A stretch of 60,603 nt of DNA, filler included, from Sphacelaria rigidula (GCA_964200075.2; 10 parts of 10 records of this genome joined end to end with filler, not necessarily neighbours in it); one strand, 5' to 3'. Shown: positions 3,819-56,993, counted from the whole stretch's first letter. The notes: generated by a model not told the origin, from the sequence alone. Numbers and translations are program-made.

Positions 3819-4252
3819 AAAACAGCCGATACTTGAAATTGAGGATGGATGAGAACCCGGAGAATTAAAAATCTTCATACCCACACCAAATCTTCGAAAT
3901 ATAGTCATATTCCTTCACCTACTGGTAGCTGATGACATTTACTACACGCTGCTCAAGTTTAGATTTCGATGACCGAAATGTTGGGTTCCTAGGGGAAAAA
4001 AAAACAATTTTGAGGAATTTAGGCGATCCGATCGGATTGCCGAAGTTCCCCGAATTTTTTTTCCACCTAGAATCCCTACATTTCGGTTATCGAAATTCAA
4101 ATTTGTACGGCGTGTGGAAGTTATCAATAGCCAGCAGTAGATGGAGAAGTGGAACCAGTTCGAAGATTGGGTGTGGAAACGAAGTTTTTCATTCTCCGGG
4201 TTTTCATCTTCAATGAAAAGCTCAACCCTCAGTTTCGATAATCGGTTGTTTT
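3819..4252. mobile_element. Foldback MITE family A, complete diverged copy
   Basis: aaaacagccgat...atcggttgtttt termini, same centre gcgatccgatcgga, colinear with 731-1179. Confidence 0.9.
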
Positions 4253-4294
4253 AAGCAACACAAGTACAGTACATGCATACTACGCATATCCCTT

Positions 4295-4416
4295 AATGGC
4301 CTCATGACCACGGCATGCAAGATCATGAGTACCCTCCCCCCCCCCCCCCCCGTGCTCCGTCTCGAAAGGGATGTGTGGTCAATGGTCGAACGGCTAGGGC
4401 AAGCAACAAATGAGTA
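4295..4416 (+). mobile_element. Two tandem 5'-truncated LINE tails (type B 4295-4331, type A 4351-4416) separated by a C-run
   Basis: atgaccacggcatgcaagatcatgagta, then C-run, then gtgctccgtctcgaaagggatgtgtggtcaatggtc...gcaagcaacaaatgagta; the latter matches the LINE 3' end at 41985-42050. Confidence 0.85.
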
Positions 4417-5169
4417 TGCCCCCCTCCGTCCCCCCCCGTCGCCCGCCCATAGAAACCCAACCTCTTCAGAAAAGGCCTCATGTTCACCCATCGCCGTCGC
4501 TAAACGTAACAATAACCAAAGTAGGACACGGGGCAAGAGGATAGCTGCGTGGAGCCATGCGTGGACGCCCGGGACGAGAACAGCATGAATTGCAGCGATG
4601 GTTCGGCGCTGACCCAATCCGAAATCGCGACTTGTTTCTGTAGGTGAGTGGGACCCAAACGGGACAGCAGACACACGTTTGTGCTATAGTTAGCTGTCAG
4701 CAAAACCGGACAAGCAACCCTCCGCCCGGTGGATGGTGGATGCTTGAGGGTGGAGTGGAATATGGTTGTATAGTACGATGTATCAACACAGTAAAGGAGA
4801 AAACTGCTACGATAGCGGGTGTACTCATGATTATTTTGCATGCTACGGCAGGGTGGGGGCGGTAATTTTGGCAATTTCTTTCACGAGCATGCCACTTCTA
4901 ATCGTCGTTGAAAGCAGGAACTTTTGTTTGAATGCCGTTGGCACCAATACGACGCAGTCATCCATACCTGACACCGTTTTCACTCAAACACAAGTGCGCC
5001 TATGAGCCCCTATTTTTTGTGCAGTCAAACACTCCACCCGCTATCGTAGGATCATTAAAAGATATACCACAAAACGCTTACGACTGGGCCGTGTAGTATT
5101 TGTGACGTATTGCAAGCTAAGGTTATGGGTGTCGCTCTATCGACCAGGCATTCACGGATTGAAATTTTG

Positions 5170-5420
5170 GCGGTTATCTGACTGATGCCACAATTCCTCC
5201 CCCCAGAAAAGTGACTGGTTTGAGAAGGCAAAATATACATGTAAATCGAAATGAAAAAAGTTGAGTACACTGAGCAGCTGAAAACTCCCACGCTTGGGAT
5301 CATTTTCACCAATGTCGCCCATACAAGGCGCTTCATGCAGCCTAAAACCAAACATCAGGCGTTGTATGGTCTTCTTTATTGGTGACAATTTTGGGGCTGA
5401 TTTTTGAGGGGTTATCGCGG
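5170..5420. mobile_element. MITE family C copy
   Basis: Colinear with 39219-39477 and inverted relative to 55504-55833 (taaatcgaaatgaaaaaag, cccacgcttggg, ccaatgtcgcccata, ccaaacatcaggcg). Confidence 0.8.
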
Positions 5421-5788: not shown

Positions 5789-5971
5789 AAAACAGCCGAT
5801 CATCTATGTTGAGGATGGTGCTTTTCATTGAGGATGAGAACCCGGAGGATTAAAATCTTTATATCCACACCAAAAATTCGAAATAAGATTCCATTCCTTC
5901 ACCTACTGGTAGCTATTGACAAGCACTACATGTCATAAAAATATTAATATCGGTAACCGAAATGTTGGGGT
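5789..5971. mobile_element. Left arm of MITE family A, cut by contig end
   Basis: 5821-5971 is almost identical to 759-909. Confidence 0.9.
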
Positions 5972-6071
5972 NNNNNNNNNNNNNNNNNNNNNNNNNNNNN
6001 NNNNNNNNNNNNNNNTTAATTAATTAANNNNNNNNNNNNNNNNNNNNNNNNNNNNNNNNNNNNNNNNNNNN
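5972..6071. other. Artificial contig linker (first of nine; others start at 12043, 18114, 24185, 30255, 36325, 42395, 48465, 54535)
   Basis: Identical 100-nt N44-TTAATTAATTAA-N44 blocks (stops in all six frames) separate segments of steadily decreasing length (5971 to 5969). Confidence 0.97.
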
Positions 6072-12142: not shown

Positions 12143-12203
12143 CCATCGGGGGTCCGCCCCTACAAAGCCGGGACGGAGCACGCCGGGTTTTCGCCATACC
12201 AGG
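12143..12203 (-). mobile_element. 5' head of the long structured retroelement module, cut by contig start
   Basis: Reverse complement cctggtatggcgaaaacccggcgtgctccgtcccggctttgtaggggcggacccccgatgg matches 42071-42135; preceded on its own strand by a C-run. Confidence 0.85.
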
Positions 12204-24062: not shown

Positions 24063-24184
24063 GGTTAGACACCCATGAGGCAGTGTAAAAGCTGTGGCTG
24101 TCTCTGGAAGTGGCGATACCACAGATTAAGGCAACTCATTGTTGGCTGTCATCCAAATGCAATATAATCAGTAGGCTTCGGCCC
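24063..24184 (+). mobile_element. Internal part of the long structured retroelement module, cut by contig end
   Basis: agacacccatgaggcagtgt...ggctgtctctggaagtggcgatacc...gcaactcatt...ataatcagta matches 42333-42390 and 53675-53785; preceded by a C-rich tract. Confidence 0.8.
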
Positions 24185-28533: not shown

Positions 28534-30241
28534 CTAGCCCGACCTTCCTGCACGCGCCGCAGTACCATTGCCACCGCGTGAACCCCCGTCCCCACTAGAG
28601 GCTCCCCCGCCATCATTGCTCCCCTCGGCAGTCTGAACTCGCGGCCCCGATGCCGGCGTGGTCGGGGTCCGACTGCTGCCGCTGGTCCCGGGAACAGGGA
28701 CCCCAGTGTCGGAGGTGCGGGTCTCACCGGACCGGCCGGCACCACTACTGCCGCTACCGGTGGCGGCGCTGGAGTTGCCATCCCCTCCCGATTGTGGCCC
28801 GTCATGACTGAACCTACATCTGTCCCCCCACCGACAGTGACCGTAGTCCAGAAAAACGAAGCATGACTGGGTCCGCCGCACTCGCGTCTCCTGCTGCGGT
28901 GCCTCAATTCCCCGCACCCCGGTTGCCGGAGCCCGATCCACCCCTCCCACCCCCCCCCGCGGTGGCACTTCCTGTTCCCCTCCCTTCCAACGCGTCAACA
29001 TACCCCGCCCTCACCATTTGCACAGCGTTGCCCCCCGGTCTCGAGCAATGAGCATAGCTGAGGAAAGGCGGGAACAGGCGGAGGAGGGAGAACGCCGACC
29101 GACGACGGTGGAGAACGGTTATTCGCGAACAGGTGCTGCGACTACTGTGCCAAGGCATCAGACCACTTGACGAGGTCAGAGTTGATGATGCGGGTCGTAG
29201 TATCAGTACCCGCGTGCTGCGTCATCATGTCGAAGTGGGCGTTGGTGTACGACCGAAGATCGGAGGTCATGGTCGCAGAGACTGCCGTAAGCGCCTTCAC
29301 CCGGCTGGCACGCATCGCTTCCTCTGCCCTGGACGGCGCTCCCAGACCGGCTCCCAGCAAGCGCCCGAAGGCATCACCCATCAGACCCAGGCGGTCCGGC
29401 AGGGATATCCTGTCGCTCGAACTAGAATTTGCCGCACCGCGCGGCATGATTGCTGCGACGTCAAGTAGAGAGAAAGAGTGCGGAACATGCTCGCTACCTT
29501 CGAAGAGACATGTATCATAGCATCCAGGACGCCCTGCAACTCAGGTGGACTGAATGACTGTGCCGGCGGTGTGCCGGTGAGGAGCCACCACTTACGCGAC
29601 GCGGCGTCCTGCCAGAGCTGCACACGATCCCGCACCTCGTACTTCCGTCGCTGCTCCACTTCCGCCCCAGCGGCAGCCTTATTTTCCGCCGGCTGCTGTC
29701 CACCCCACGGCTGCACGTTGGTCCACGACCCACCTCCACCCACGGGTCCCGAACCGGCAAGGTTTGCTGTCTGCAGGTCGGTATTGTCCTGACGAGCAGC
29801 GGGGGAGGCGGGTTGTAATGCCGCCGAACCGATGTGGAGGTTGCGTGACCCCCAGCCAGCCTCCGCAAATTCTCTGCGCGGCTCCGTGCGTACCCCTGGC
29901 GTACCTGGCCATATCACCGCTGGCCGGGCGGGTGATGGCAGGGACACATCACCAGTGCCGGTAGTAAGCGGCCTAGCCGCCTCTGTGCCAGGACCCCTCA
30001 CGGCCGCGTGGGAAAAATTGCTGTCATCGGGGCGGTGGAAGGATGCTACGGGTCTTGCCCCTGATGAAACTAACTGTTTTACCACCTCCGTCAACTGACG
30101 AACGTCGTCTGTAACCGAGGTCATCTTGGAATCCAGATTCTCCACGCTCGTCTTGGTGCCCTCAAGGTTGTCGGCGATGGTATCCACGCGATCGCTAATG
30201 CGGCCAATGTTTTTGGTGATATCGCCCACCTGGCTGTCCAA
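28534..30241 (-). pseudogene. gag-like ORF of the YR retrotransposon (N-terminal coiled coil, C-terminal CCCH zinc finger)
   Basis: Heptad pattern in ORF 29381-30241; CFVFLDYGHCRWGDRCRFSH (C-x8-C-x5-C-x3-H) in ORF 28534-29001; spread over four frames. Confidence 0.75.
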
Positions 30242-32459: not shown

Positions 32460-33135
32460 CCCCATGGTCTCTGTGGGCCTCGCCTTTAGTAGTCGTCTGT
32501 AAGAAAATGGCAAAATCAGACTGACGGTCAATTATCAACGGTTGAACGCTGTCACCAAAATCGCCCGGCTGCCACTTCCACGGGTCGATGAAATTATTGA
32601 CTCTCTCGGCGGGGGTAAGGTACTTTCGAACTTTGACATGCAGTCCGGCTACCACTAGCTCGTGATGGATCCAAATTCCATTGAATTGACAGCGTTTTGC
32701 ACGCCATCAGGTTTAAACGAGTGGCTGGTTACACCACAAGGTGCCGCCGGAGTTCCAGGTGCGTTTCAACGTGTAATGTTTCGTGTAGCCGATGGATTGC
32801 CCAAATGCCATATGTACCTTGATGATGCGGTGTGCCACGACCCCACACCAGCTGAACACGTCGAACAGTTGGCATCATTCTTTAATCGGTTTGAACAGCA
32901 CAACTTGAAACTCGCCCCCTCCAAATCCCGCATTGGCGCCACGAAGATTGAGTTCTTGGGTCATTACATCACCCCCGAAGGTCGTAGCCCAAACCTCGAC
33001 AAGGTCGCCGCACTCGCCGATATGCCCATGCCACGGGACATTTCTCAACTGCGTTCCTTGTTGGGAGGTCTGAGCTACTACAGACAGTACTTGCCAAATC
33101 TTGCCCAAACGCTGAACCCCTCACCACCCTCTTAA
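32460..33135 (+). pseudogene. Gypsy reverse transcriptase
   Basis: WASPLVVV, NYQRLN, LPRVDEII, FDMQSGYH*, TAFCTPSG, PQG, YLDD, IEFLGH, LRSLLGGLSYYR; includes a frameshift and a stop. Confidence 0.93.
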
Positions 33136-33143
33136 AAAAAGGG

Positions 33144-34745
33144 GTGGAATTTGTGTGCACATTGGAAATGGAAAAAACCGTCCGCCGTCTTCGTGACACC
33201 CCTTCGCGCCCGCCGATTCTCGTCTTCCCCAACTGGTCGACCGCCGAGCAGGGTTCCCGTCCTTTCCGGCTCCACACAGATTCTTCCAAAATTGGGTTTG
33301 GCTGCACATTAGAACAGGAGCAAGTCGATGCTACTGTTCGTCCCATCGTCTATCTGAGTCACACCACTTTTCCGAATGAACAGAATTTGCCTGTCATGGA
33401 ACAAGAGGCCGGCGCAGTTGTTTGGGGCATGCGACGTCTGCGTCAGTATTTGTATGACATCCCGTTCGTGATTTATACCAATCAGAAGTCTTTGAAAAGC
33501 CTTGCCAAAATGGCGGAACACAACGCTAGGGTCCAACGCTGGTTCGAAATCCTGTCGTCTTACAACTTTCAACTGAAGTACCGCACAGGTCCCCAGAATG
33601 CAAACGCCGACTTTCTGTCACGCTTGCCCACACCAGCTCAACCCATCGATGAATCCCCCATGAGAAGTATCACCGATCCCACCGAAGACATTGTATATTT
33701 CACAAGCAGGAATGGACATAGAGGTCTCTACACACCTCTTTCACCGAGAGAAACGCCGGCTTTAGGCATGAGTGGGCTGGCGACCACAGCCCACGCATCA
33801 GGTTTAGACAGCTTGCAACCTCAATCGTTGTACTCACTTTGGAATGGACTGTCTACGAATACTGTTGGCTATGATCATTTTCGTGCAACTGGCCAGCGCA
33901 TGGTTTTCACAGCAGGTGTAAAACCGTCCTTTGCTGACTCCGTCTTACCAGTTCAAGTTCGAGATTTGATTTCGAGTAGGACTCGTGGACGGCGGACCGC
34001 CGAAACGGCCACCAAATCAGCCGTATCTGGTTCTGACCTTCCCCTCCCTGCCCCCACCCCGGTCCTCAATAGTTTCCTTGCGCCCCCGCAGCCTCCGCGA
34101 CGCAAGACCGACAGACATTCGACCCCGACCGTGCCGCCCCTGCCAACCATAGCCGGAAGCACGGCTGTGCCTCCCTCCCTCGGTGATGACATTGCAAACA
34201 CCACCACATTACCCTCCACGCTAATCGATGCAGGAGTAGACGTCAACGTTCCGTGTGAGAGTACGCCAACTGGTAGGCTCACCCTTGATCCCGAAATCAC
34301 CGCTTCGAGCCAACCGCGCCCCGAACCGACCCAACACGAAGTAGACGCTTCAACATATGGAGTATTCAAGGAACGTTTGACTCTCTTCTCCTACGCCGAT
34401 TGGGCCCGGGAACAACAGGTAGAACCCGCTTGTGAATCAGCTATCCATTATCTATCTAAAGATTGCCCATATCCATTCTCAGAAACCGAATTTCTCTTGC
34501 CAGTCGGGACTCTCAAAGCGCCCACACAGGATGAAGTTACTGAACTTTCAAGGAAAGGTATGCTAGATACGGATGATTATGGTAGAGTTCTGTTAGTTCG
34601 TCAGCCTACAGCAGCCCTCCCCAGGGGGAAGCCTACAAGTCGACATGCCCGCTTGCAAGGTGATGAACCCATCCGTATCTATGTCTCGATGCTCCTGCGC
34701 CCATGGGTTCTACACTTAGCCACTCACAGGCATCGACTCATTTAG
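33144..34745 (+). pseudogene. Gypsy RNase H plus long Pro/Thr/Ser-rich linker
   Basis: FRLHTDSSKIGFGCTLEQ, EQEAGAVVW, YTNQKSL, RVQRW, NANADFLSR, then ~350 aa of linker. Confidence 0.9.
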
Positions 34746-36324
34746 GCGCCATTAGGACCTCCCAGATGTTGGAATCGAGCCTGGTCCGGCGCAAACCCGG
34801 CGTGCTCCGTCCCGGCTTTGTAGGGATGCGAGAGGTCAATGGTATTATGACTATGGCATGCATGATCATGAGTACATCCAGATGTTGGAATGTTTTTTTG
34901 GTGGATTTGTATGGATCAGTGTTGTCGTTGGTGGATGAGACGTTGTCTTCTATGTCAGGCGCGAAAAACCTCTCGTCAAACAGTTCGTTGGTCGATTGTT
35001 TCCATCCCACTCCCAAACGCGCCTGGCGAAGTAGTTTCGTAGGACTACTTTGGTCTTTTGCCCCTGACGGATAGTGGGAAAAACTATATTTTGTTGTTTA
35101 CGGATAGATTCAGTTGACATGCGGTGATGCACGCTGTCCCCTCCAGCAGCTATAACGCGGAAGGTACCGCCAACATTCTGGTATACATGTCCATACCACA
35201 GTGGGGTGTGCCCAAACGCTTACTGTCTGACAACGGCCCGCATTTTCCAGGCAAAGTTTAAGCCGCCGTTAGTGACCTTTTGGGTGCCCATCGCATTTTT
35301 ACTAGTTCATATCACCCTTCCACCAATGGTGGAACGGAACGACTGAACCATACGATGGCACAGATGCTTGCTGCTGTAGCAAATGAAAGAGATATGGACT
35401 GGGATCTGCACCTGCCCCTTGTCCGAATGAACTACAACAATTCAGTCAATGCCGCTGCGGGATTGTCGCCGAATGAAATTCATATTGGACGCATGCCTAG
35501 GTCACCTTTAACGGTATTCGAACGCAAAAATATAGGCGGACATCAGAGTCTAGATCGTGATGTTGTAGAGTATCATTTGTCGGTTAGCAATCGTCTTCGT
35601 CTTGCATATGAAGTGGTACGAGAACAAAACGAAATCAATTTGGCCAAGGTGGCCAGGGCGAACTCAATGTTGGATGATGTGGTACATTACCGCCCGGTAT
35701 GGAAGGTAGGCCAATGAGCATGGGTGTATAACGATGTGAAGACCATCAATCAAGGGGCTAGCTCGAAATCATCATCTATGGACAAAGTGTTGAAGGCGAA
35801 ACTATCCTTGAAATGGACTGGTCCTCGGGAAATTTTAGCTGTTGGTCCAAGCGCTACCGCACCCGACAAGGTTCTAGTGGGAGCGAAAATTTTGTCCTCA
35901 GATTTTCCCACGGATGGACCTGGTTTGAAACCGAAAAATCGCGTCTCGATGCTACGATTCAAACCGTGTATCCCCCCTCATGACTCCTCTGACATGCCCA
36001 AACAACTGCCGCTAGGGCTTAGCCAGTATGTGTTGACCAAGTATGCGATCAAAACCCCGCCGTATCATATGACGGTCGAGGATGCCGACGCACCCCTGGA
36101 ACGCGTTGAGGTAGATAGGATTTCGGGCCATCAACTGGTTCGCGGTCGTTGAGGTAAGATAACGGTAATGTATCCAACAAGTTGAAAGGGTATCATACGT
36201 GTTACATGGGAGCGTGAGGTTGATTTGCGTCATTTTCGTCGGGAAATATTGCTGTACTGGGTAGGAGATACCGTCCAACACCGCCCGTTGAATAAGAGAT
36301 ATCGGTCGATGCGCAAGGGAGCTG
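34700..36324 (+). pseudogene. Gypsy integrase (HHCC, DDE, GP motif) and chromodomain-like C-terminus
   Basis: HSQASTHLG...CLLCQ; TDRFS, LSDNG, GTERLNHT; KWTGP; VDRISGH...TWEREVDL; several stops; interrupted by a SINE. Confidence 0.9.
34776..34874 (+). mobile_element. Short head+tail SINE (~97 nt) inserted in the Gypsy integrase
   Basis: Flanked by a 14-bp duplication ccagatgttggaat (34762-34775 and 34878-34891); homologous copies at 51584-51680 (-) and 53873-53962 (+). Confidence 0.92.
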
Positions 36325-39218: not shown

Positions 39219-39477
39219 GGCCGACACCTTCTACGATAGCCTCCCTCCAAAATGTGCCTGGTTTGGAGAGGCAAAATGTTCACGTAAATCGAAATGAAAA
39301 AAGCCGAGCACAACGAGTAGCTGGGAATTCCCACGCTTGGGTTCGTTCTCGCCAATGTCGCCCATATGAGGCGCTTCATGCAGCGTGAATCCAAACATCA
39401 GGCGCTGTATGACCATTGTTTTCGTGACAGGTTTGGGCTGGTTTTGGCGGGGGGGGGCTACGGTAAAAATTGTCGGC
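39219..39477. mobile_element. MITE family C, complete copy
   Basis: Imperfect TIRs ggccgacaccttctacgatagcc / ggctacggtaaaaattgtcggcc; interior shared with the 5170 and 55504 copies. Confidence 0.8.
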
Positions 39478-40779: not shown

Positions 40780-42050
40780 TTCCAATACTCTGGGAAATGG
40801 AGAGTGACCGCGAACGTGAACAACATGCGCGGTACGTGTATGTAACGAAAATCAGAGGAACCCGGTCAAGTTCAAATGGGAGTGGGGAGAAGAGAACCTG
40901 CCGATCGTAGACCAGTATACATACCGTGGCGTAGATATCTAGAAAAACTGTTCTTGGGATGCACACATGGATGAAGTAATAGAAAAGGGGTAAGGCACAG
41001 ATAAGCAGGATGGACGTGATCCTCAGAGACCCGCGCCTAGACACTAGGATGAAGAGATGTATCCTGATGAACGTGATTGTACCAAAGCTGGAATATGCAG
41101 GAGGAGTATGGGAGGGGAACGCGAAGTTGGTGAAGAAGTTGGAAACAGTACAGATGGCAGCAGCTGAGAAAATACTTGCGTGCTCGAAAACGACGAGTAA
41201 TACAGCCTTGAGAGCAGAGTTGGGAATGTACGCACTAACAAGCAGAGACTTGAGAAAAAAAAAAAGTATAGCGCAAAGAACACGCAGAGGAAAATATTGC
41301 CAGCGATAGTTGCGCTGTATGGAAGAAAATGACGAAAGGGCAGGCTAGAGTAAGATGGGATAGAGGAGTCGAGAAAGTATGGAAGGAAGTAGGAGGAAGC
41401 CAAAACGAACTACTGCCCATGGGTGAAGGTGCGAGGTACAAGACAAAAGTAAGAGAAATGACTGAAATAAGGGGAAAATAAACGCTCAGACACATAGTAG
41501 ACGAGGAAGAGCACCTGAAGACATACGGGGGGCTGGGAGAGGAGATAAGAATGGAAACATGTCTGCATGACCAATGGACGCGGCGAAAAAATGGAAACCG
41601 CGATTTCGGATGGGGGACCTGGATGGACCTGCCACAAAGATGAAAGATATATTCCAGTTGTCGGGGGGAAGAGAAGAGAGATGCACAGGATTGCCCCCGT
41701 GGCCAAGCAATAAAGAGCAGAACTCATATAGTGGCGGAATGTGAACTATACAAGGAGGAACGGGACGTGTTGAAGGGGGGTATGCGTGACGTGAACGAAG
41801 GGGGCATGAAATCGTTTGATGGATTAGATAGTAGGGAGAAAGCGATGGCTGTACCAGGAGATGGGTGATGGCCACAGACGGCGGAACAGGACGGGGATAA
41901 GATATGTAAAAGCTTTTTGTGCAACTTGTGGAAGAGACGTATGAGCACCTAACTGGTGGAGGTGTCTCTATTTGGAGTAGGAGCGGTGCTCCATCTCGAA
42001 TGGGATGCGTGGTCACTGGTCAAACGACTAAGGCAAGCAACAAATGAGTA
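40780..42050 (+). mobile_element. 5'-truncated non-LTR retrotransposon (LINE): RT C-terminus, thumb, CCHC-like finger, 3' end type A
   Basis: WRVTANVN, LPIVDQYTYRGV (YxYLGV), VPKLEYAGGVW, LETVQ, TSNTALRAELG, THIVAECELY; frameshifted; ends ...GCVVTGQTTKASNK* gta. RTEX/Ingi-like clade is inferred only. Confidence 0.9.
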
Positions 42051-42070
42051 CGCCCCCCGCCCCCCCCACA

Positions 42071-42394
42071 GCCTGGTCCGGCGAGAACGCGGCGTGCCCC
42101 GTCCCGGCTTTGTAGGGGCGAACCCCCTGAGGTTGGCGTCGGTCGGCAACGACGCTGTAAAACACGCCACTCACTGCGTCAGCTAGGCAACCAGGTTACC
42201 GATTGTTTTTGCACCGCTCGCGCTTTTTTGCGGTAACCATGATGACAGTCGCGCTAGATCATGTTGTGCGGCGTGGAAAAACCTCAACTCCGCACAATGG
42301 GGATGATCGTACCACGTAGTGTTTACATGGTAAGACACCCATGGGGCAGTGTTTAAGCCGTGGCTGTCTCTGGAATTGGCGTTACCAGAAAATA
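42071..42394 (+). mobile_element. Long structured module (head + body), probable LINE 5' region or long non-autonomous derivative, cut by contig end
   Basis: Starts with the same gcctggtccggcg...gtcccggctttgtaggg head as the short SINE and continues colinearly with 53473-53725. Confidence 0.85.
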
Positions 42395-43648: not shown

Positions 43649-45042
43649 GTGAGTCATTTTGTTCTTTTCAAGCACGTTTCCTTTTGCTTCCCCTTTTTTT
43701 TTCTTGTCAATGCTGTTTTTTTCGCGACACACATGTTACGCCGTCGTACCTCGTCGGTCGTCCACCTGCTACCTGTGCGGCCAATTTGGGCTGAGTCGAT
43801 GGATTCAACTTCCGGGACGACGGATATATCATCATGATGGCTCATCAATATATATTTTTATTCCCAAGGATATGTTTTTTCGTCGTTGAAAGCGTGAATA
43901 TGATAGTTTTTTGTAGCAAAGAAAACGATCCGGCGAAGGTGGAAAGGGTTCAGAAGTGCTGCTGATGCAATCTCAGGAATTCACATCAGATATAGGGTGT
44001 AACGGGGGAGAGATGGGTTCATCCATTGAGACGGCGGGCCGCGGATGGAGGGCGGTGCAAGAAGGTCAACAGCATGGCGAAAGGGGAAAATATGCGTGCG
44101 GAGGCGTGCAGAGTGGGGAGGTGGACCGCTTCTCTGTCCGTCTTCTTGCCTTTGGACGTGTTAGAGTCCACATGGCGCGAAATGTGTTGTTTTTTGAACC
44201 GGAACATGGTGATATGTGAAGGCGTACTAGGGAAACGTGTACGCCCGACTTGGACCGTATTGCAGCTACCTTGTGAGTATCGGTGTTGCTGTTGGTTTGG
44301 GGGTCGATTAAAAGTACTTGACAATTCGGGTCGAATAATTTATCTTGGGCATCTGTCCGACTAGTTCAGTGTTGTAACTTGGCTTCTGATTATCTGTCGT
44401 CGCTTTTGTTTTGGCGAGTCATTCGAACATACTTTATACCCACGTTTGTATGTACATGCCTTTTTTAGGGGCATTGGGAGGCCCACTCAACATTTTCCCG
44501 TGATAGACAATTGCTTCTCGTCCCCCCGTCCTTCTTGATGTGAGACGTGGAAAGCCACCCATGGCGTGTCCCGTGCTTCGAATGACCGGCCGAAAATAAC
44601 ACACACCCCAAAAGCCTCCATTGTATTTGGGGAAGTCATTTTTTTCGCCGTGGAACCCCTCCCCCCCCCCCCCCCCCTGCCCCCACCCCAACTTTTACTT
44701 TATTCTTGTTTTTTTTTTTTTTTTTTTTTNNNNNNNNCCGAAAATAACACCCCCCCCAAAAGCCTCCATTGTATTTGGGGAAGTCATTTTTTTCGCCGTG
44801 GAACCCCCCCCCCCCCCCCCTCTCTGGCGGACCGAACCTAATATCCTCGATCGCCGTGTTTTTCTCTAATTTTCCAGGACCGGTGAAAGAATTTGACGAC
44901 TTCACAGCTTGTTTCAGTGGCTGCATCTATAGTGACAACATGCATCGCGTTGCTGTCGTTCGACTGTGATGCAGTACAAGGAATGACGATCAGCCCGATT
45001 GATATCTTGAGTCGCACTACTAGTTACCACGCTTGAACGTTC

Positions 45043-50945: not shown

Positions 50946-51583
50946 TCGATACTATTTTCTCCCCACCTCCTACATGTCATTCCCAAACAAAATATACGTG
51001 CTCCACAATGTTGATGCCAGTCTCCTGCAGTGTTGCGAGCTAAGTTGTGAATTTATCGTTGTTTTTGGCAGGTCTCACTCCAACTGCTCCATTTTTCGGG
51101 TGGTTACGCATGTTCTCGTGTCTACGGCCGGTAGTATGTTCTTGTGTGTGGTGCGTTCGCAAACATGAATTTATTTATCTATGAAACATTGGCGTCGTGC
51201 ATTGGAGGCGATAAGGGAGACTATCCCTTGTAGAACTATCAAACGTTCCATTTCCCCGGGACGACGATGAATCCATGGTCTCAAAAGATCAGCCCACCCT
51301 TGACCTTGGTACCTACCTGCCTCATGCATTGTTTTTGAGGATCGGAGGAGCACTCTCTCACCCCGTGGACCCTCGTTGAGTTCGTTGCTGCAACTTGCGC
51401 CGTCGCGTTTTTCACCACGGAACCCAAATTGTACTCTAAAACATCGTATGTGTCGAGGATTTGAACTCGCAGCGTTCCGCCTTAACTGGCTATTGGCGGA
51501 ACTATTTTGTGAGTTTATCGGGACGCGATATTAACTTGGAGTACGTTTATGAGAGTGCTACCTTTATGGGAGGATGTGGGGTG

Positions 51584-51680
51584 TACTGATCTTATTGCAT
51601 GGCGTAGTCATAAGACCAGTGACTTCGCACCCCTTTAAAGCCGGGACGGAGCACGCCGGGTGTTCACTGGACCAGGCTCG
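51584..51680 (-). mobile_element. Short head+tail SINE copy
   Basis: Reverse complement cgagcctggtccagtgaacacccggcgtgctccgtcccggctttaaaggggtgcgaagtcactggtcttatgactacgccatgca...agta then cacccc. Confidence 0.88.
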
Positions 51681-51921
51681 CAATCGATCACCATGCGCAA
51701 AGCGTGGTCACGTTTTCGGCGAGTCTCGTGAAGGATGAGCTGCATCCCAGTAAGATTGGTCGGCCCGAAGCGAACTGGCTATCTTGCATATTGATGGCAG
51801 CCTCGAATAAGTTGCTTCATTTTCTGTTATCGCCACTTTCAGAGACAGCCACGGGTTACACTGCCTCATGGTTGTTTCACCATCCAAACACTACGTAGTA
51901 CGATCACCCCCTTCGCGCAGA

Positions 51922-51962
51922 TGGTCAATGGTCAAACGACTAAGGCAAGCAACAAATGAGTA
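51922..51962 (+). mobile_element. 41-nt type A LINE tail with imperfect ~15-bp target duplication
   Basis: cccccttcgcgcaga (51907-51921) versus ccccctttgcgcgga (51974-51988). Confidence 0.8.
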
Positions 51963-52108
51963 CGGCCCCCCCCCCCCCTTTGCGCGGAATTGAGGTTCTG
52001 CCACCCCGCACAATATTATCTGGCTCGACCTCCATCGGTTTCACCGCAAAAAATGCATACAAGAAAAAAAATAGTGAGCTGGTTTTCCTAGCTTACGCGG
52101 TGAGTAGC

Positions 52109-52139
<31 letters not shown>

Positions 52140-52259: not shown

Positions 52260-53177
52260 ATGAATCACGGATGGTAAAGTTGTACGCTCAAGGTCGTACC
52301 GTACGAATAACGAAGTGGGAATTTGCACACTCCAAGTATTGTCAAACGAATGAAAAGTGCATAATGTGTACGAATCACATTTCTTGTACGAATCACCGGT
52401 GGTAAACATGTACTCCTGATTAATCGCGTACGAATCACAGGTTGAAGAACACCTACATGTGATCCGTTCGTATGAATGGAAGGTGGGGAACATGTGCGTA
52501 TAATCTATGTGGTATGAATGGAAATTGAGAAACATATACTCCTCATCCACCTCGTATTAATGGAAGGCGAAGGACATGTACGCCTGCTTCATGCTAAATG
52601 AATCGGCATCGGGAAACTTGTGCTCTTGATTCAACTCGTCGATGGAAGGCGGGGAACATGTGCGTATGATCTATGTGGTATGAATGGAAATGAGAAACAT
52701 ATACTCCTCATCCACCTCGTATTAATGGAAGGCGAAGAACATGTACGTCTGCGTCATGCTAAATGAATCGACATCGGGAAACTTGTGCTCTTGATTCAAC
52801 TCGTCGGTGGAAGGCGGGGAACATGTGCGTATGATCTATGTGGTATGAATGGAATTGAGAAACATATACTCCTGATCCACCTCGTATGAATGGAAGGCGA
52901 AGAACATGTACGTATGCTTCATGCTGCATGAATGGAAGGTGAGAAATACGTATCCATGTTTCATTCCATACGAATGGAAGGTAGGGAACATGCACGCTCG
53001 ACGGTATACAGCACGGATCACGAAATGGAAATCTTCATTCACACTTCAAGTAGTGTCGCACGAATTAAGAGCCCAAAATACGAACAAATTACCACGTATG
53101 TGCAAATCATATGATAGATTCGTGCACATGTTAAATATAGGACGAATCACGATAAACTTCGTCCGTTCCGTGATTCG
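52260..53177. mobile_element. Element with degenerate inverted ends enclosing a 42-bp minisatellite (165-166-bp higher-order unit x~3)
   Basis: Subunits start at 52471, 52513, 52555, 52597, 52639, 52679; higher-order starts at 52513, 52679, 52844; gaatcacgga at 52262 is inverted against tccgtgattc near 53170. Confidence 0.8.
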
Positions 53178-53409
53178 TTACCGCATGCCAGGGCGCACTT
53201 GGGTGTGGTGTAGCACTCCCACCAAGTTCTGTACTTGCATTCCGCGGGATGAAGCTTCGTCAAACTTCCGACATTTCACTGAATATACGCAGGAATACTA
53301 TTCTCATAACTCTTTAGTGGCTCAAGAAACGTCTCGACGTGGGCACTTTCGGGCAATGACTTAGTCGAAACATGCCTCCCCCACTTCACACGCCCCCCCC
53401 ACTCCCTTT

Positions 53410-53459
53410 CCGCGAGGTCAATGGTCTTATGACTATGGCATGCATGATCATGGATACAG
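53410..53459 (+). mobile_element. 50-nt type B LINE tail with 11-bp target duplication
   Basis: ccactcccttt at 53399-53409 and 53460-53470 flank gcgaggtcaatggtcttatgactatggcatgcatgatcatg. Confidence 0.85.
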
Positions 53460-53472
53460 CCACTCCCTTTTG

Positions 53473-53962
53473 AAGGTTGGCGTCGGTTGGCAACGACGCC
53501 GTAGAACATGCCACTCACTGGGGGAACTAGGCCACCAGATTATCGTGTTGTTTTTCGGTTGCGTTTTATTTTTCGGTAACCATGATGGTGGCCGAGTTAG
53601 ATCATATTATGCGGGGTTGCAGAACCTCAACTCCGCGCGAAGGGGAATATTATACTACGTAGTGTTTAATGGTGAGACACCCATGAGGTAGTGTGTAACC
53701 CGCGGCTGTCTCTGAAAGTAGCGACATACCAGCGAATGGAGCAACTCATTCGAGGCTGCCATCTATATGCAAGATAATCAGTACCCTTCGAACCGAACAA
53801 TCTTAGCAGGATGCAGCCCACCCTCCATGCGACTCGCCGAGCACATCACGGCGCTTCGCGCTTGATGGTCGCGAGGCTGGTCTGGCAAAAACCCGGTGTG
53901 CTCCGTCCCGGGTTGGTCGGGATGCGAGGTCAATGATCCTATGACTACGGCATGCAAGAGTA
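53473..53962 (+). mobile_element. Body of the long structured module followed directly by a short head+tail SINE (53873-53962)
   Basis: Colinear with 42128-42394 and 24063-24184; ends gctggtctggcaaaaacccggtgtgctccgtccc...gggatgcgaggtcaatgatcctatgactacggcatgcaagagta then ccccc. Confidence 0.85.
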
Positions 53963-54420
53963 CCCCCAGACGTGAGGCGACTCCGATGTTCTCTAAAACA
54001 TAGTCGAAGCCGGGTTGAACGGTGGAATCAGCCCACTCAAAGCACGTATATTTGGCGTGGAACGCTAACTAGAGGCCGCGACATCAAAGTCCTGATGAGT
54101 AAAGTACTAAAATGCTAACATGCGCTCGTTTATCTGCCCGAATTTGAGCGTTAGTCGGTTTCCTGTGACCGACTATACCGCGACCTTTCATTATACCGGG
54201 ACCGCCACGGAAGTGCTCTTTTTTGCTCATCCTGTCGATCCAATCATCCCTCCTCCCCCCTCGAGTCGGTCCGTATTCTCGAAGGATCAAGCCTAACGAC
54301 CATCCCTCCTCTCCTCCGGTACCTTCTTGGAACTGTATCATCGATCATTGGACATCATTCACTCCAGCAGCCCCTTGACTTTCATCGGCTATTTATTCTC
54401 CCTCTTAACTCTCATTTTCA

Positions 54421-54534
54421 GGTCAGTAGTCATATGACTACGGCATGCAAGATCACGAGTACATGAGTACCCCCCCGTTAGCCTGGTCCGGCGAGAACCC
54501 GCGTGCTCCGTCCCGGCTTTGTAGGGGCGGACCC
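54421..54534 (+). mobile_element. Type B tail with duplicated terminal unit, C-run, then a new head (54481) cut by contig end
   Basis: ...gcatgcaagatcacgagtacatgagta ccccccc gtta gcctggtccggcgagaacc... Confidence 0.85.
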
Positions 54535-54634: not shown

Positions 54635-54683
54635 GGATGCGCAGTCAATGGTCTGATGACTATGGCATGCATGATCATGAGTA
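54635..54683 (+). mobile_element. Type B tail at contig start
   Basis: ggatgcgcagtcaatggtctgatgactatggcatgcatgatcatgagta. Confidence 0.85.
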
Positions 54684-55503
54684 CACGCCAGCCCCGCCAG
54701 CCTCTCCCCCCTTCATGTCTCGCCCATAGTTTTGTCGCCGCAAAATGACATTTCGACGGCACAAGGCACTTAAATTCATGTGTATATATTAATTCATTTT
54801 CTTATTCATTAGGTTTGTCCGCATTCCGTCTCTGGACGCAGGTGCAACAATCACAGGGCCTGAGAGCGCAACATTCCTCCGAAGTCCGACGCACCAGCGG
54901 CCAGTATTATTCCGTTTATTCTGTCCCGTGCTTTTTTTTAGGGATTTGCCCTATACCCACATTTTCCCGTTTCCCTTCGCGGAATTTGCCCGTTTCTCCG
55001 CGGAATCTACTCTGGGACCCGTGACTTCCCTAGCAACCATAACCTGACGTTTCTCTACCCGGAATTACCGCGACCTGTTTCCGTGGAACTTTGCACTCCT
55101 CTCTTCTCCTGGGGATTTCACGCGCGGAACCTCCAACATCAGTGACGGCCCGAGCCGTTTGACTTTTCCCTCATAAAAAGTTCCCGCACCGTATTTCCCC
55201 GGCACGAGTGACGTACTCTCCACCCGTCAATGCAACGGAACCTGCATGTCTCTCTGGTACCAGTGGCGTTCTCAGCCGTTTGACCCCCCCTTTCGTGCCA
55301 GTGCCTACCACAGTTTTTTTTCACTTGAAAGAGACCTGAAAATGATTCCTATTCAACAAGAGGCGGTCACAGGGTTCAATTCCGTCGTCAGCTAGTCTCT
55401 CCATGATAAATCCAAATCTTTGATAGACTGACCCAACTACACTCTAACCCTAACCGCAACCGTAACCCACCGATGAAGGCAGGTGGTAAACAGTCAGGCA
55501 CCG

Positions 55504-55833
55504 GACACTTTCTGCGATAGCTCCTCCCCCCCACCCCCCCCCCCAAACCAGCCTATAAGACGTTCAGGGAGAAAAAGGTCATACAGCGGCTGATGTTTGA
55601 TTTCAGGCTCCATGAGGCGCTTTAAATGCGCGACATTGGCGAAAACGAACCCAAGCGTGGGACTTCCTAGCCGCTCGTTATGCTCGGCTCACGTACTTTT
55701 CAAGTGAAAATGATGTCGATGCCACAAATGAGCTGCTCGCTGTGCTCGGCTTCTTTCATTCGATTCACGTGTGTGTGGATTTTGCCCCTCCAAACCAGCC
55801 ACGTTTGGAGGGGGACTATCGCAGAAAGTGTCA
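55504..55833. mobile_element. MITE family C, complete copy (extra partial copy ~55955-56090)
   Basis: 17-bp perfect inverted ends gacactttctgcgatag / ctatcgcagaaagtgtc. Confidence 0.85.
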
Positions 55834-56419
55834 CCGAGACAATTATTCTGTGGCTCTCGTAGTCACAGGGTGCTTTGTCCTACTGCGCCAATCCCAACCC
55901 TTCAACCGCCGGAGGTGTTTTATTTGTGGAGTCGGCCTGATTCTCACCCATTTTCAAAATGAAAATGATGTCGATTCCACAAATCAGCTGCTGGTTATGC
56001 TCGGCGTATTTCATTTCGATTTACATGTAGATTTTGCCTCTCCAAACCAGTCACTGTTTGGGAGGGGGGGCTATCGCAGCAAATGTCACTCAGGGAAACC
56101 CATCACTAGAAGAATTCGTGGAATCGGCATCGTTTTCAGGCCCTTTTCAAGCAATAACGATGTCAATTCTACAAATGAAAACTTCGGGCGCCAGAGGGTT
56201 TACCAGAAGCTGGTGGTCTGGCGGAGCATGTGTCGTTGAGCACGATAACACAGAGTTCTTCAGCGCATCATGCAACCCCTACGCTCTGAACCGTGGTGTC
56301 TTCCGTGATCTTGGTTTTGCGTATGGCCGATAAAAATTACGTTGTCTTCTGCGAGGTAAAGTGATGCCGGTTTGCACCAATCCCTCGCCGCGAGAGTATC
56401 CTATCTCCATCATGCATCA

Positions 56420-56580: not shown

Positions 56581-56634
56581 GTTTAATGTTGGCGTGGATT
56601 CCGACCAGCTCTTTCCCCCCTTACTCTGAACACG

Positions 56635-56696
56635 CTCCGTCTCGAAAGGGATGCGTGGTCAATGGTCAAATGACTAAGGCAAGCAACAAATGAGTA
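56635..56696 (+). mobile_element. Type A LINE tail with perfect 13-bp target duplication
   Basis: tactctgaacacg at 56622-56634 and 56695-56707; C-run immediately upstream. Confidence 0.92.
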
Positions 56697-56993
56697 CTCT
56701 GAACACGAAACAACCCAGTAGGGGTAGTGATTAATCCTTAGACAGCAAGAAGAGTAGGTCATCTGTTAAATCGGCATCGACTTCAACTGGGAGGAGAATA
56801 CATGATCCATGGCCAATACTCTTCCGTGGGAAACTTCCGAAACACTTATGGCTAACTTGGTGAGCTTTTCGGGTCTTATTATGCGAGTAGTCCCCCCCCC
56901 CCCCCCCCCGCCGCCGCCCCGAGGCCATCCTCGGATGTCCCTGCACTGTCAGCTTGTAAAAATGTTGTGAAGCGACGCTCGCTGTCGCAGAGT

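Follow-up and report, generated by a model that had tools for sequence, protein, structure and literature searches.

The window, meaning the whole stretch of DNA that was analysed (60,603 nucleotides), is composed of ten pieces of ~5.97 kb joined by N44-TTAATTAATTAA-N44 spacers (5972-6071 and eight others), and its survey covers about 59.8 kb of sequence. A decayed Gypsy pol with reverse transcriptase, RNase H and integrase remnants lies at 32659-36149 (+ strand), as judged from Pfam matches and reading frames, and serves as host to a short insert at 34776-34877. On the 5' side of the insert, Pfam identifies RVT_1 (1.6e-15) and RT_RNaseH (6.8e-29). Immediately 3' of it, nothing more is seen than rve fragments (E 0.16-0.17) and an Integrase_H2C2 match below threshold (E 0.0028, 18.2 bits versus a cut-off of 25.5). 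The Gypsy frame has a stop already ahead of the insert and a frameshift beyond it.

The insert (copy A, + strand) is 102 bp in length and is bracketed by an exact 14-nt direct repeat, CCAGATGTTGGAAT, with 14 of 14 positions identical between the left copy at 34762-34775 and the right copy at 34878-34891 (both + strand). The target-site duplication (TSD) that the initial annotation had reported around a unit within a Gypsy element is thus borne out. The repeat is the sole direct repeat within 34740-34910, and a search of the same interval for inverted repeats returned none, leaving copy A with no inverted ends. Isolated exact direct repeats of at least 14 nt at a spacing of 30-1000 nt number roughly ten outside tandem arrays across this repeat-rich window; since such repeats are not unique, the weight for copy A rests on the exactness of the bracketing and not on the repeat alone. 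When the unit was compared to the window by BLASTN, the limits of the repeat-family homology coincided to the base with the ends of the TSD. Copy A is a genuine retroposon insertion. Its first 26 nt (34776-34801) are family-specific, the following 76 nt (34802-34877) resemble the 3' end of a LINE, and it terminates in ...GAGTACAT with no poly(A).

The unit had been described as a ~97-nt SINE in which a head is fused to a LINE tail, with two further short copies at 51584-51680 and 53873-53962. Both are recovered by BLASTN (51582-51680, - strand, 81%; 53872-53959, + strand, 83%), but they are the 3' ends of an element of ~560 bp. Copies B (51582-52112, - strand) and C (53471-53959, + strand) remain alike for 331 bp upstream of the head and tail (51595-51921 versus 53957-53632, 79%), and this upstream body is also the body behind the 5' head of a third copy, D (42130-42381 versus 53474-53723, 79%). 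From the alignment of the window copies, the element consists in order of a 48-nt head, a linker GCG(G/A)ACCCCC, a body of ~400 nt, CGAG with a second head, and a tail of ~52 nt, with a poly(C) run closing the 3' end and a composite length of ~560 bp. The body has no ORF and no Pfam hits. The same CGAG-head-tail block is found in A, B and C, and in B and C it is preceded by about 330-400 bp of common body. The head and tail junction is therefore the ordinary 3' end of the ~560-bp element, of which copy A presents the 3' module. Among the three window copies with readable upstream sequence, copy A alone has the short form. Ahead of the second head, copy B reads ...TTGCGAGCC and copy C reads ...TCGCGAGGC; copy A begins with CGA, matching this internal context. 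The complete 5' heads of copies D and E begin with AGCCTGG behind unrelated bases.

As first noted, the head at 42070, 54480 and 12203 (- strand) does continue into a longer body. This body is not a LINE: its ~400 bp contain no ORF and end in the second head and tail. The linker behind the 5' head, GCG(G/A)A-CCCCC-..GAGGT (42118-42135, 54527-54534 and 12143-12157 on the - strand), resembles the tail start ATGCGA-GAGGT with an inserted C-run, a likeness suggesting that the 5' head may be what is left of an upstream module.

Eleven fragments of the ~560-bp element (family 1) were found in the window. Seven of them start internally, at about position 50-60 (copy C, with the second head from 53872), 93 (copy B, with the second head and tail at 51582-51680), 260 (24063-24184, + strand, with C-rich sequence ahead), 458 (copy A), 512 (copy G), 515 (54420) and 520 (4295). 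Three start at the 5' head (42070, 54480 and 12203 on the - strand) and all three run off piece ends. Copy D (42070-42394, + strand) has the head at 42070-42117 followed by body. Copy E, a head (54480-54526) with 8 nt of body, is preceded by a tail fragment (54420-54464) and C7+GTTA, the whole arrangement occupying 54420-54534 (+ strand). Copy F (12143-12203, - strand) lacks the first 4-5 nt of the head, includes the start of the body and has a C-run ahead of it. The remaining fragment, copy H (54635-54685, + strand), is a tail that starts at a piece boundary. Copy G (53412-53459, + strand) is a tail-only, 5'-truncated insertion flanked by an 11/11 TSD, CCACTCCCTTT (53399-53409 and 53460-53470). 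At 4295-4435 (+ strand), a family-1 tail fragment (4295-4332) and a C-run precede a copy of a second type of tail (family 2, 4352-4435). Two other family-2 tails are a 60-bp copy, J (56635-56694, + strand), with a 13/13 TSD, TACTCTGAACACG (56622-56634 and 56695-56707), and an insertion at 51919-51973 (+ strand) that interrupts copy B.

Four insertions therefore have TSDs that can be compared: copy A (14/14), copy G (11/11), copy J (13/13) and the family-2 tail inside copy B (11/12). Three of the four begin with CC. At the insertion in copy B (51919-51985), eight extra C lie between GAGTACGG and the TSD, which is a direct display of the poly(C) tail. The variable TSDs of 11-14 bp and the 5'-truncated copies uphold the earlier view of a mobile, LINE-type unit, whereas its description as a ~97-nt fusion SINE is not supported, the junction being the standard 3' end. 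Rarity of the fused form together with a lack of TSDs elsewhere had been named as an argument against that description; the short form is indeed seen only once, while other truncated insertions (G, J and the tail in B) do carry TSDs. With 81-83% identity to A, copies B and C are old, and inspection by eye revealed no convincing TSDs around them. The heads of D, E and F are 92-94% identical to the head of A. No recent long copy is visible over its whole length in the window.

The boundaries of several pieces of the window fall within the retroposon family (12143, 42394, 54534 and 54635), a pattern suggestive of an assembly broken at repeats. An assembly join is probably present at 44590-44826, where a 90-bp duplication surrounds an N8 gap with long T and C runs flanking it. 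Other features of the window include a tandem repeat at 52468-52946, in which a unit of roughly 165 bp occurs in about three copies that are 92-95% alike, and two more unclassified families of interspersed repeats (716-1179, 3819-4263 and 5789-5971; 5196-5411, 39223-39455 and 55534-56089) with identities of 74-96% and no Pfam matches. The most GC-rich piece (GC 0.62) contains an ORF at 28537-29010 (- strand) with a CCCH zinc finger (zf-CCCH_DUS3L, 1.5e-07) that is probably part of a host gene.

A search of metagenome contigs with a degenerate tail pattern identified three loci, L001, L002 and L003, all of which end in a family-2 tail and poly(C). The L003 ORF encodes 1426 aa with Exo_endo_phos (6.7e-13) and RVT_1 (1.1e-30) domains, and the L001 ORF (1253 aa) has the same endonuclease and reverse transcriptase domains. 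Among named proteins, the nearest relatives of the L003 ORF come from Ectocarpus, with 43-66% identity. Judged by these relatives and by its (C)n tail, the LINE resembles the RTE-X type. Neither a TSD nor a 5' end could be defined for L003, which extends over a 4.28 kb ORF and 0.7 kb of upstream sequence. The window has its own 5'-truncated copy of this endonuclease and reverse transcriptase LINE (~1.29 kb; 40784-42069, + strand), which is 80.7% identical to L003 over 1292 bp and ends in a family-2 tail and a C-run that copy D abuts. The initial annotation had likened the tail to a LINE 3' end at 42000-42050; the likeness is correct, with the limits closer to 41986-42066.

The stop codon of the LINE is the TGA in AATGAGTAC, only 5 nt ahead of poly(C), and the tail thus corresponds to the last ~24 codons of the LINE with 5 nt added. 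Put differently, this LINE is practically without a 3' UTR and its cis-acting tail is coding sequence (L003:119-214 and L001:694-757, both on the - strand). Positions 27-100 of the unit, starting with GTGCTCC, match the L001 3' end with 73% identity over 74 nt. Three of the four short family-2 tail copies (window 4352, 48591 and 56635; L001-L003) start no more than 7 nt from this GTGCTCC, the onset of likeness between the LINE and the non-autonomous element, and this may reflect a truncation hot spot or a minimal unit of ~77 nt.

The homology to the LINE begins 25 nt inside the head, at unit position 27, which makes part of the head LINE 3' coding sequence and removes the grounds for treating it as a LINE 5' signal. 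This bears directly on the earlier proposal that copy A arose from an autonomous LINE by internal deletion, as a minimal derivative that retains the LINE 5' head and 3' tail. The tail is certainly LINE-like, and the head of the Ectocarpus element RTEX-N1 is annotated with a relation to the 5' end of RTEX-2_Ec32, so that a LINE 5' origin is conceivable for part of the 5' region of the long element, going by that table entry (PMC12477816). Set against this, the homology to the LINE 3' coding end takes in 25 of the 48 bases of the head, and neither the head nor the body has a match in L001, L002 or L003 outside of the tail. The head leads into ~400 bp of ORF-less body followed by head and tail, not into a LINE, and the junction supposedly created by the deletion is already present in the long element. 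The 711 nt upstream of the ORF in L003, the only near-complete LINE found, do not contain the head, though the 5' end of the LINE is probably not reached there. An internal deletion is accordingly a very improbable origin for copy A. The dependence of the insertion on a LINE is, by comparison, well supported.

The abundance of the element was gauged from contigs of three public DNA runs (X1-X3) and of a fourth run (X10), guessed to be RNA, which were placed on 53400-54534 at a likeness of at least 80%. The matching contigs numbered 45178 (X1), 32216 (X2), 28476 (X3) and 3003 (X10). In X1, the summed depth was 74.3 on the single-copy flank at 53970-54387 and up to 9.18 million in bins of the element, where summed contig depth is not to be equated with copy number. 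X1 depth increased along the element, from 0.02-0.57 million over the 5' body through about 0.1-1.1 million in the middle part to 5.5-9.2 million over the final ~75 nt of body. This rise towards the 3' end is the shape expected from heavy 5' truncation. The contigs of X10 reached a summed depth of 602,004 on the element with none on the flank at 53970-54387, a result that carry-over DNA would mimic, the RNA label being a guess. Pattern searches for the head in metagenome contigs, and for the head and tail junction and the family-1 tail in public genome contigs and viral contigs, returned no matches in each case.

The consensus sequences derived from X1 agree with the architecture of the window copies. 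Before the tail, the consensus is ...CGGCGTGCTCCGTCCCGGCTTTGTAGGGAT, which is the second head (1021 contigs, agreement 0.69); behind the body (behind 53864), it is GTGATTGATTGCGAGCCTGG / GTGATTGATTGCGAGCCTGGTCCGGCGAAA (353 contigs, agreement 0.70); and behind the tail, GAGTACA is followed by at least 20 C (904 and 688 contigs). Among the joints listed for X1, head-tail was represented by 41+8+5 contigs, head and linker to body by 10+23, and tail-head by 8. In the window, a tail, a C-run and a head adjoin in the same manner as in these last 8 contigs at 42062-42070 and 54464-54480. Before the head (at 54480), the consensus is a C-run and then (GAT)TGATTGCG in 238, 189 and 178 contigs of X1, X2 and X3, respectively, with agreement of 0.46-0.53. 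This could represent recurrent copies that start 8-12 nt ahead of the second head, or an artefact of a mixture.

From these observations, copy A is probably a 5'-truncated copy of a very abundant, ORF-less, LINE-dependent retroposon of ~560 bp that is similar to the RTEX-N elements of Ectocarpus. A very large family has this 3' end, with poly(C) and a depth that rises to the 3' end, and one more truncated copy is for that reason the likeliest identity of the insert. Copy A would then have arisen by truncation and not from a short master copy. Some findings weigh against truncation. Copy A starts only 3 nt upstream of the repeated 48-nt block; if truncation points were uniformly distributed, starts no farther than 5 nt from that boundary would make up a few percent of cases. 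The force of this coincidence is weakened in that copy A was picked for its head and tail appearance. The C-run consensus before the head and the lack of a recent long copy visible in full also count on this side.

The start of copy A so near this block also speaks for a different identity, a full-length member of a short subfamily (~100-115 nt) that comprises the 3' module only (26 family-specific and 76 LINE-like nt) and is comparable to RTEX-N2, with the 560-bp element as a relative or as a tandem or read-through derivative. The 48-nt block is also the 5' end of the long element, joined to body in 33 of the X1 contigs listed, and could hold a start signal; copies starting near the second head may be marked by the C-run, TGATTGCG and head consensus; and copy A has no run of four or more T, unlike the long form. 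The Ectocarpus element of 188 bp shares its 3' 100 bp with the one of 607 bp, which would make a module of ~100 bp the shared unit in the families tabulated there (PMC12477816). However, one short copy stands against two long copies with the same block in about 59.8 kb, and the first three bases of copy A match the internal context of the long element. In X1, depth in the bin directly before the second head equals or exceeds that of every tail bin, so a form consisting of head and tail only cannot dominate. No promoter motif was recognized either, whether as an A or B box within 2 mismatches in copy A, an Rfam match or a tRNA. A short subfamily is thus a doubtful identity for copy A, though one that deserves to be kept in mind.

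A stronger version, in which the 3' module of ~100 nt is a self-sufficient minimal retroposon with its start signal in the first 48 nt, is improbable. Copy A would again be full-length, and the 560-bp element would go back to a tandem arrangement in which the upstream module lost most of its tail and came to form the 5' end of a read-through transcript. If true, this would explain why the same 48 nt are found at both ends of the long element.

Searches for RNA genes and promoters were consistent with the initial annotation in that the head is not of the tRNA type. ARAGORN identified no tRNA genes and Rfam at gathering thresholds gave no matches over the whole window. With E values up to 10, Rfam returned only chance-level hits in 34740-34900 and 41950-42394, unrelated to tRNA, 5S or 7SL; the earlier remark that poly(A) is absent also stands. 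Within 2 mismatches of the usual box consensus, copy A has no A or B box, and no positionally sensible pair was found. T runs terminate RNA polymerase III. Copy D has T5 and T6, copy C has T5, T4 and T5, and copy B has T8 and T6, all within a homologous region of the long copies at about positions 90-160. The presence of T5-T8 runs in all three argues against transcription of the long form by this polymerase. The longest T run of copy A is below four. Folding of the 3' module gave a minimum free energy of -30.7 kcal/mol compared to a shuffled mean of -32.3 (z 0.48). A fold computed from the alignment had 14 pairs with one compensatory change, and in that alignment MAFFT had put the first hairpins of the two tail families out of register. 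Neither fold lends support to a structured 3' signal. The presence of CTGATGA in one copy and GAAA in the LINE tail raised the idea of a retrozyme with a hammerhead; as Rfam identified no hammerhead at E values up to 10 in those two stretches, this idea was dropped.

Elements that are not retroposons at all were also considered, namely a remnant of a MITE or DNA transposon, a retrozyme or Penelope-type element, or a chance repeat. With its adjoining tail and head and its repeated ends, the long element is reminiscent of pseudo-LTR or tandem structures. But copy A has no inverted ends, its TSD is 14 bp while the lengths among copies differ (11, 12, 13 and 14 bp), and a LINE ORF lies directly upstream of the related tail. 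Neither a hammerhead nor any other credible Rfam match was obtained at E values up to 10 in the two stretches searched. Such an origin is largely refuted and highly improbable.

If copy A is a truncated copy of the ~560-bp element, its insertion may be pictured as follows. The LINE protein would recognize the 3' module on the non-autonomous RNA and nick a target whose top strand starts with C, allowing the poly(C) of the RNA to pair with G's of the nicked strand. The RNA would be copied from its 3' end with frequent early stops, and a staggered second nick would generate the duplications of 11-14 bp. Copy A would then be the product of target-primed reverse transcription of a ~560-bp parent RNA that ended early.

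The genome sampled here, probably that of a brown alga or one of its near relatives, appears to be overrun by a LINE system of the RTE-X type with poly(C) tails and by a ~560-bp parasite of that LINE. Recognizing the ~560-bp family explains many piece ends and nested insertions, and the family is worth masking and cataloguing, with little consequence beyond annotation. Of modest interest is the route by which an ORF-less element with no recognizable promoter becomes so numerous, along with the possible role of the 48-nt block at both of its ends as a start signal.

Several known systems may be compared to this one. Classical LINE-tailed SINEs, for example tRNA-derived ones with RTE, L2 or CR1 tails, are short and ORF-less with a LINE-derived 3' end, TSDs and very high copy numbers. 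The present element likewise has TSDs and a 3' end in common with its partner LINE; unlike these SINEs, it has no tRNA, 5S or 7SL head and its long form has internal runs of T4 or more. RIME of Ingi is a bipartite derivative of a LINE, produced by deletion to leave 5' and 3' parts, and is non-autonomous and LINE-mobilised. In contrast, the body of the present element has no LINE similarity, and its 5' part may have an origin other than a LINE 5' end. MITEs and DNA transposons have terminal inverted repeats and a TSD of fixed length; copy A has no inverted repeats, and the TSDs of the present system vary from 11 to 14 bp.

The closest likeness is found in the brown alga Ectocarpus. Its RTE-X LINEs, RTEX-1_Ec32 and RTEX-2_Ec32, are reported to have a single ORF with endonuclease and reverse transcriptase, a (C)n 3' end, C-rich TSDs and a length of 5.5-5.9 kb, and within the Ectocarpus table a (C)n tail is given for the RTE-X rows only (PMC12477816). 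The partner LINE shares the single endonuclease and reverse transcriptase ORF, the (C)n 3' end and the C-rich TSDs with both; L003, at a 4.28 kb ORF and 0.7 kb upstream, is shorter than the lengths tabulated and likely does not include the true 5' end (PMC12477816). The non-autonomous RTEX-N1_Ec32 (604-607 bp) is listed as the most abundant family of the Ectocarpus genome and RTEX-N2_Ec32 (188 bp) has its 3' 100 bp in common with RTEX-N1; the table notes for the RTEX-N1 head a "weak homology to 5' of RTEX-2_Ec32" (PMC12477816). The authors of that work hesitate over the SINE label and leave open how RTEX-N1 reaches its numbers (PMC12477816).

From the entries in that table, the present element and RTEX-N1 have in common a length of about 600 bp, the lack of an ORF, very high abundance, tandem occurrences, C-rich TSDs and a head of unknown origin (PMC12477816). 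In both, conservation with the autonomous LINE is confined to the 3' end, over 60 bp at 83% in RTEX-N and over 74-76 nt at 73% here, and a 3' module of ~100 bp is shared among non-autonomous forms (PMC12477816). The differences are the organism and the doubled 48-nt head, present at the 5' end and again before the tail, which is absent from the Ectocarpus table (PMC12477816). With a LINE-conserved 3' end, a (C)n terminus, a C-rich TSD, an abundant ORF-less form of ~600 bp and tandem occurrence all found here, the system appears to match, in its described features, the pairing of an RTE-X LINE with RTEX-N elements already known from Ectocarpus.
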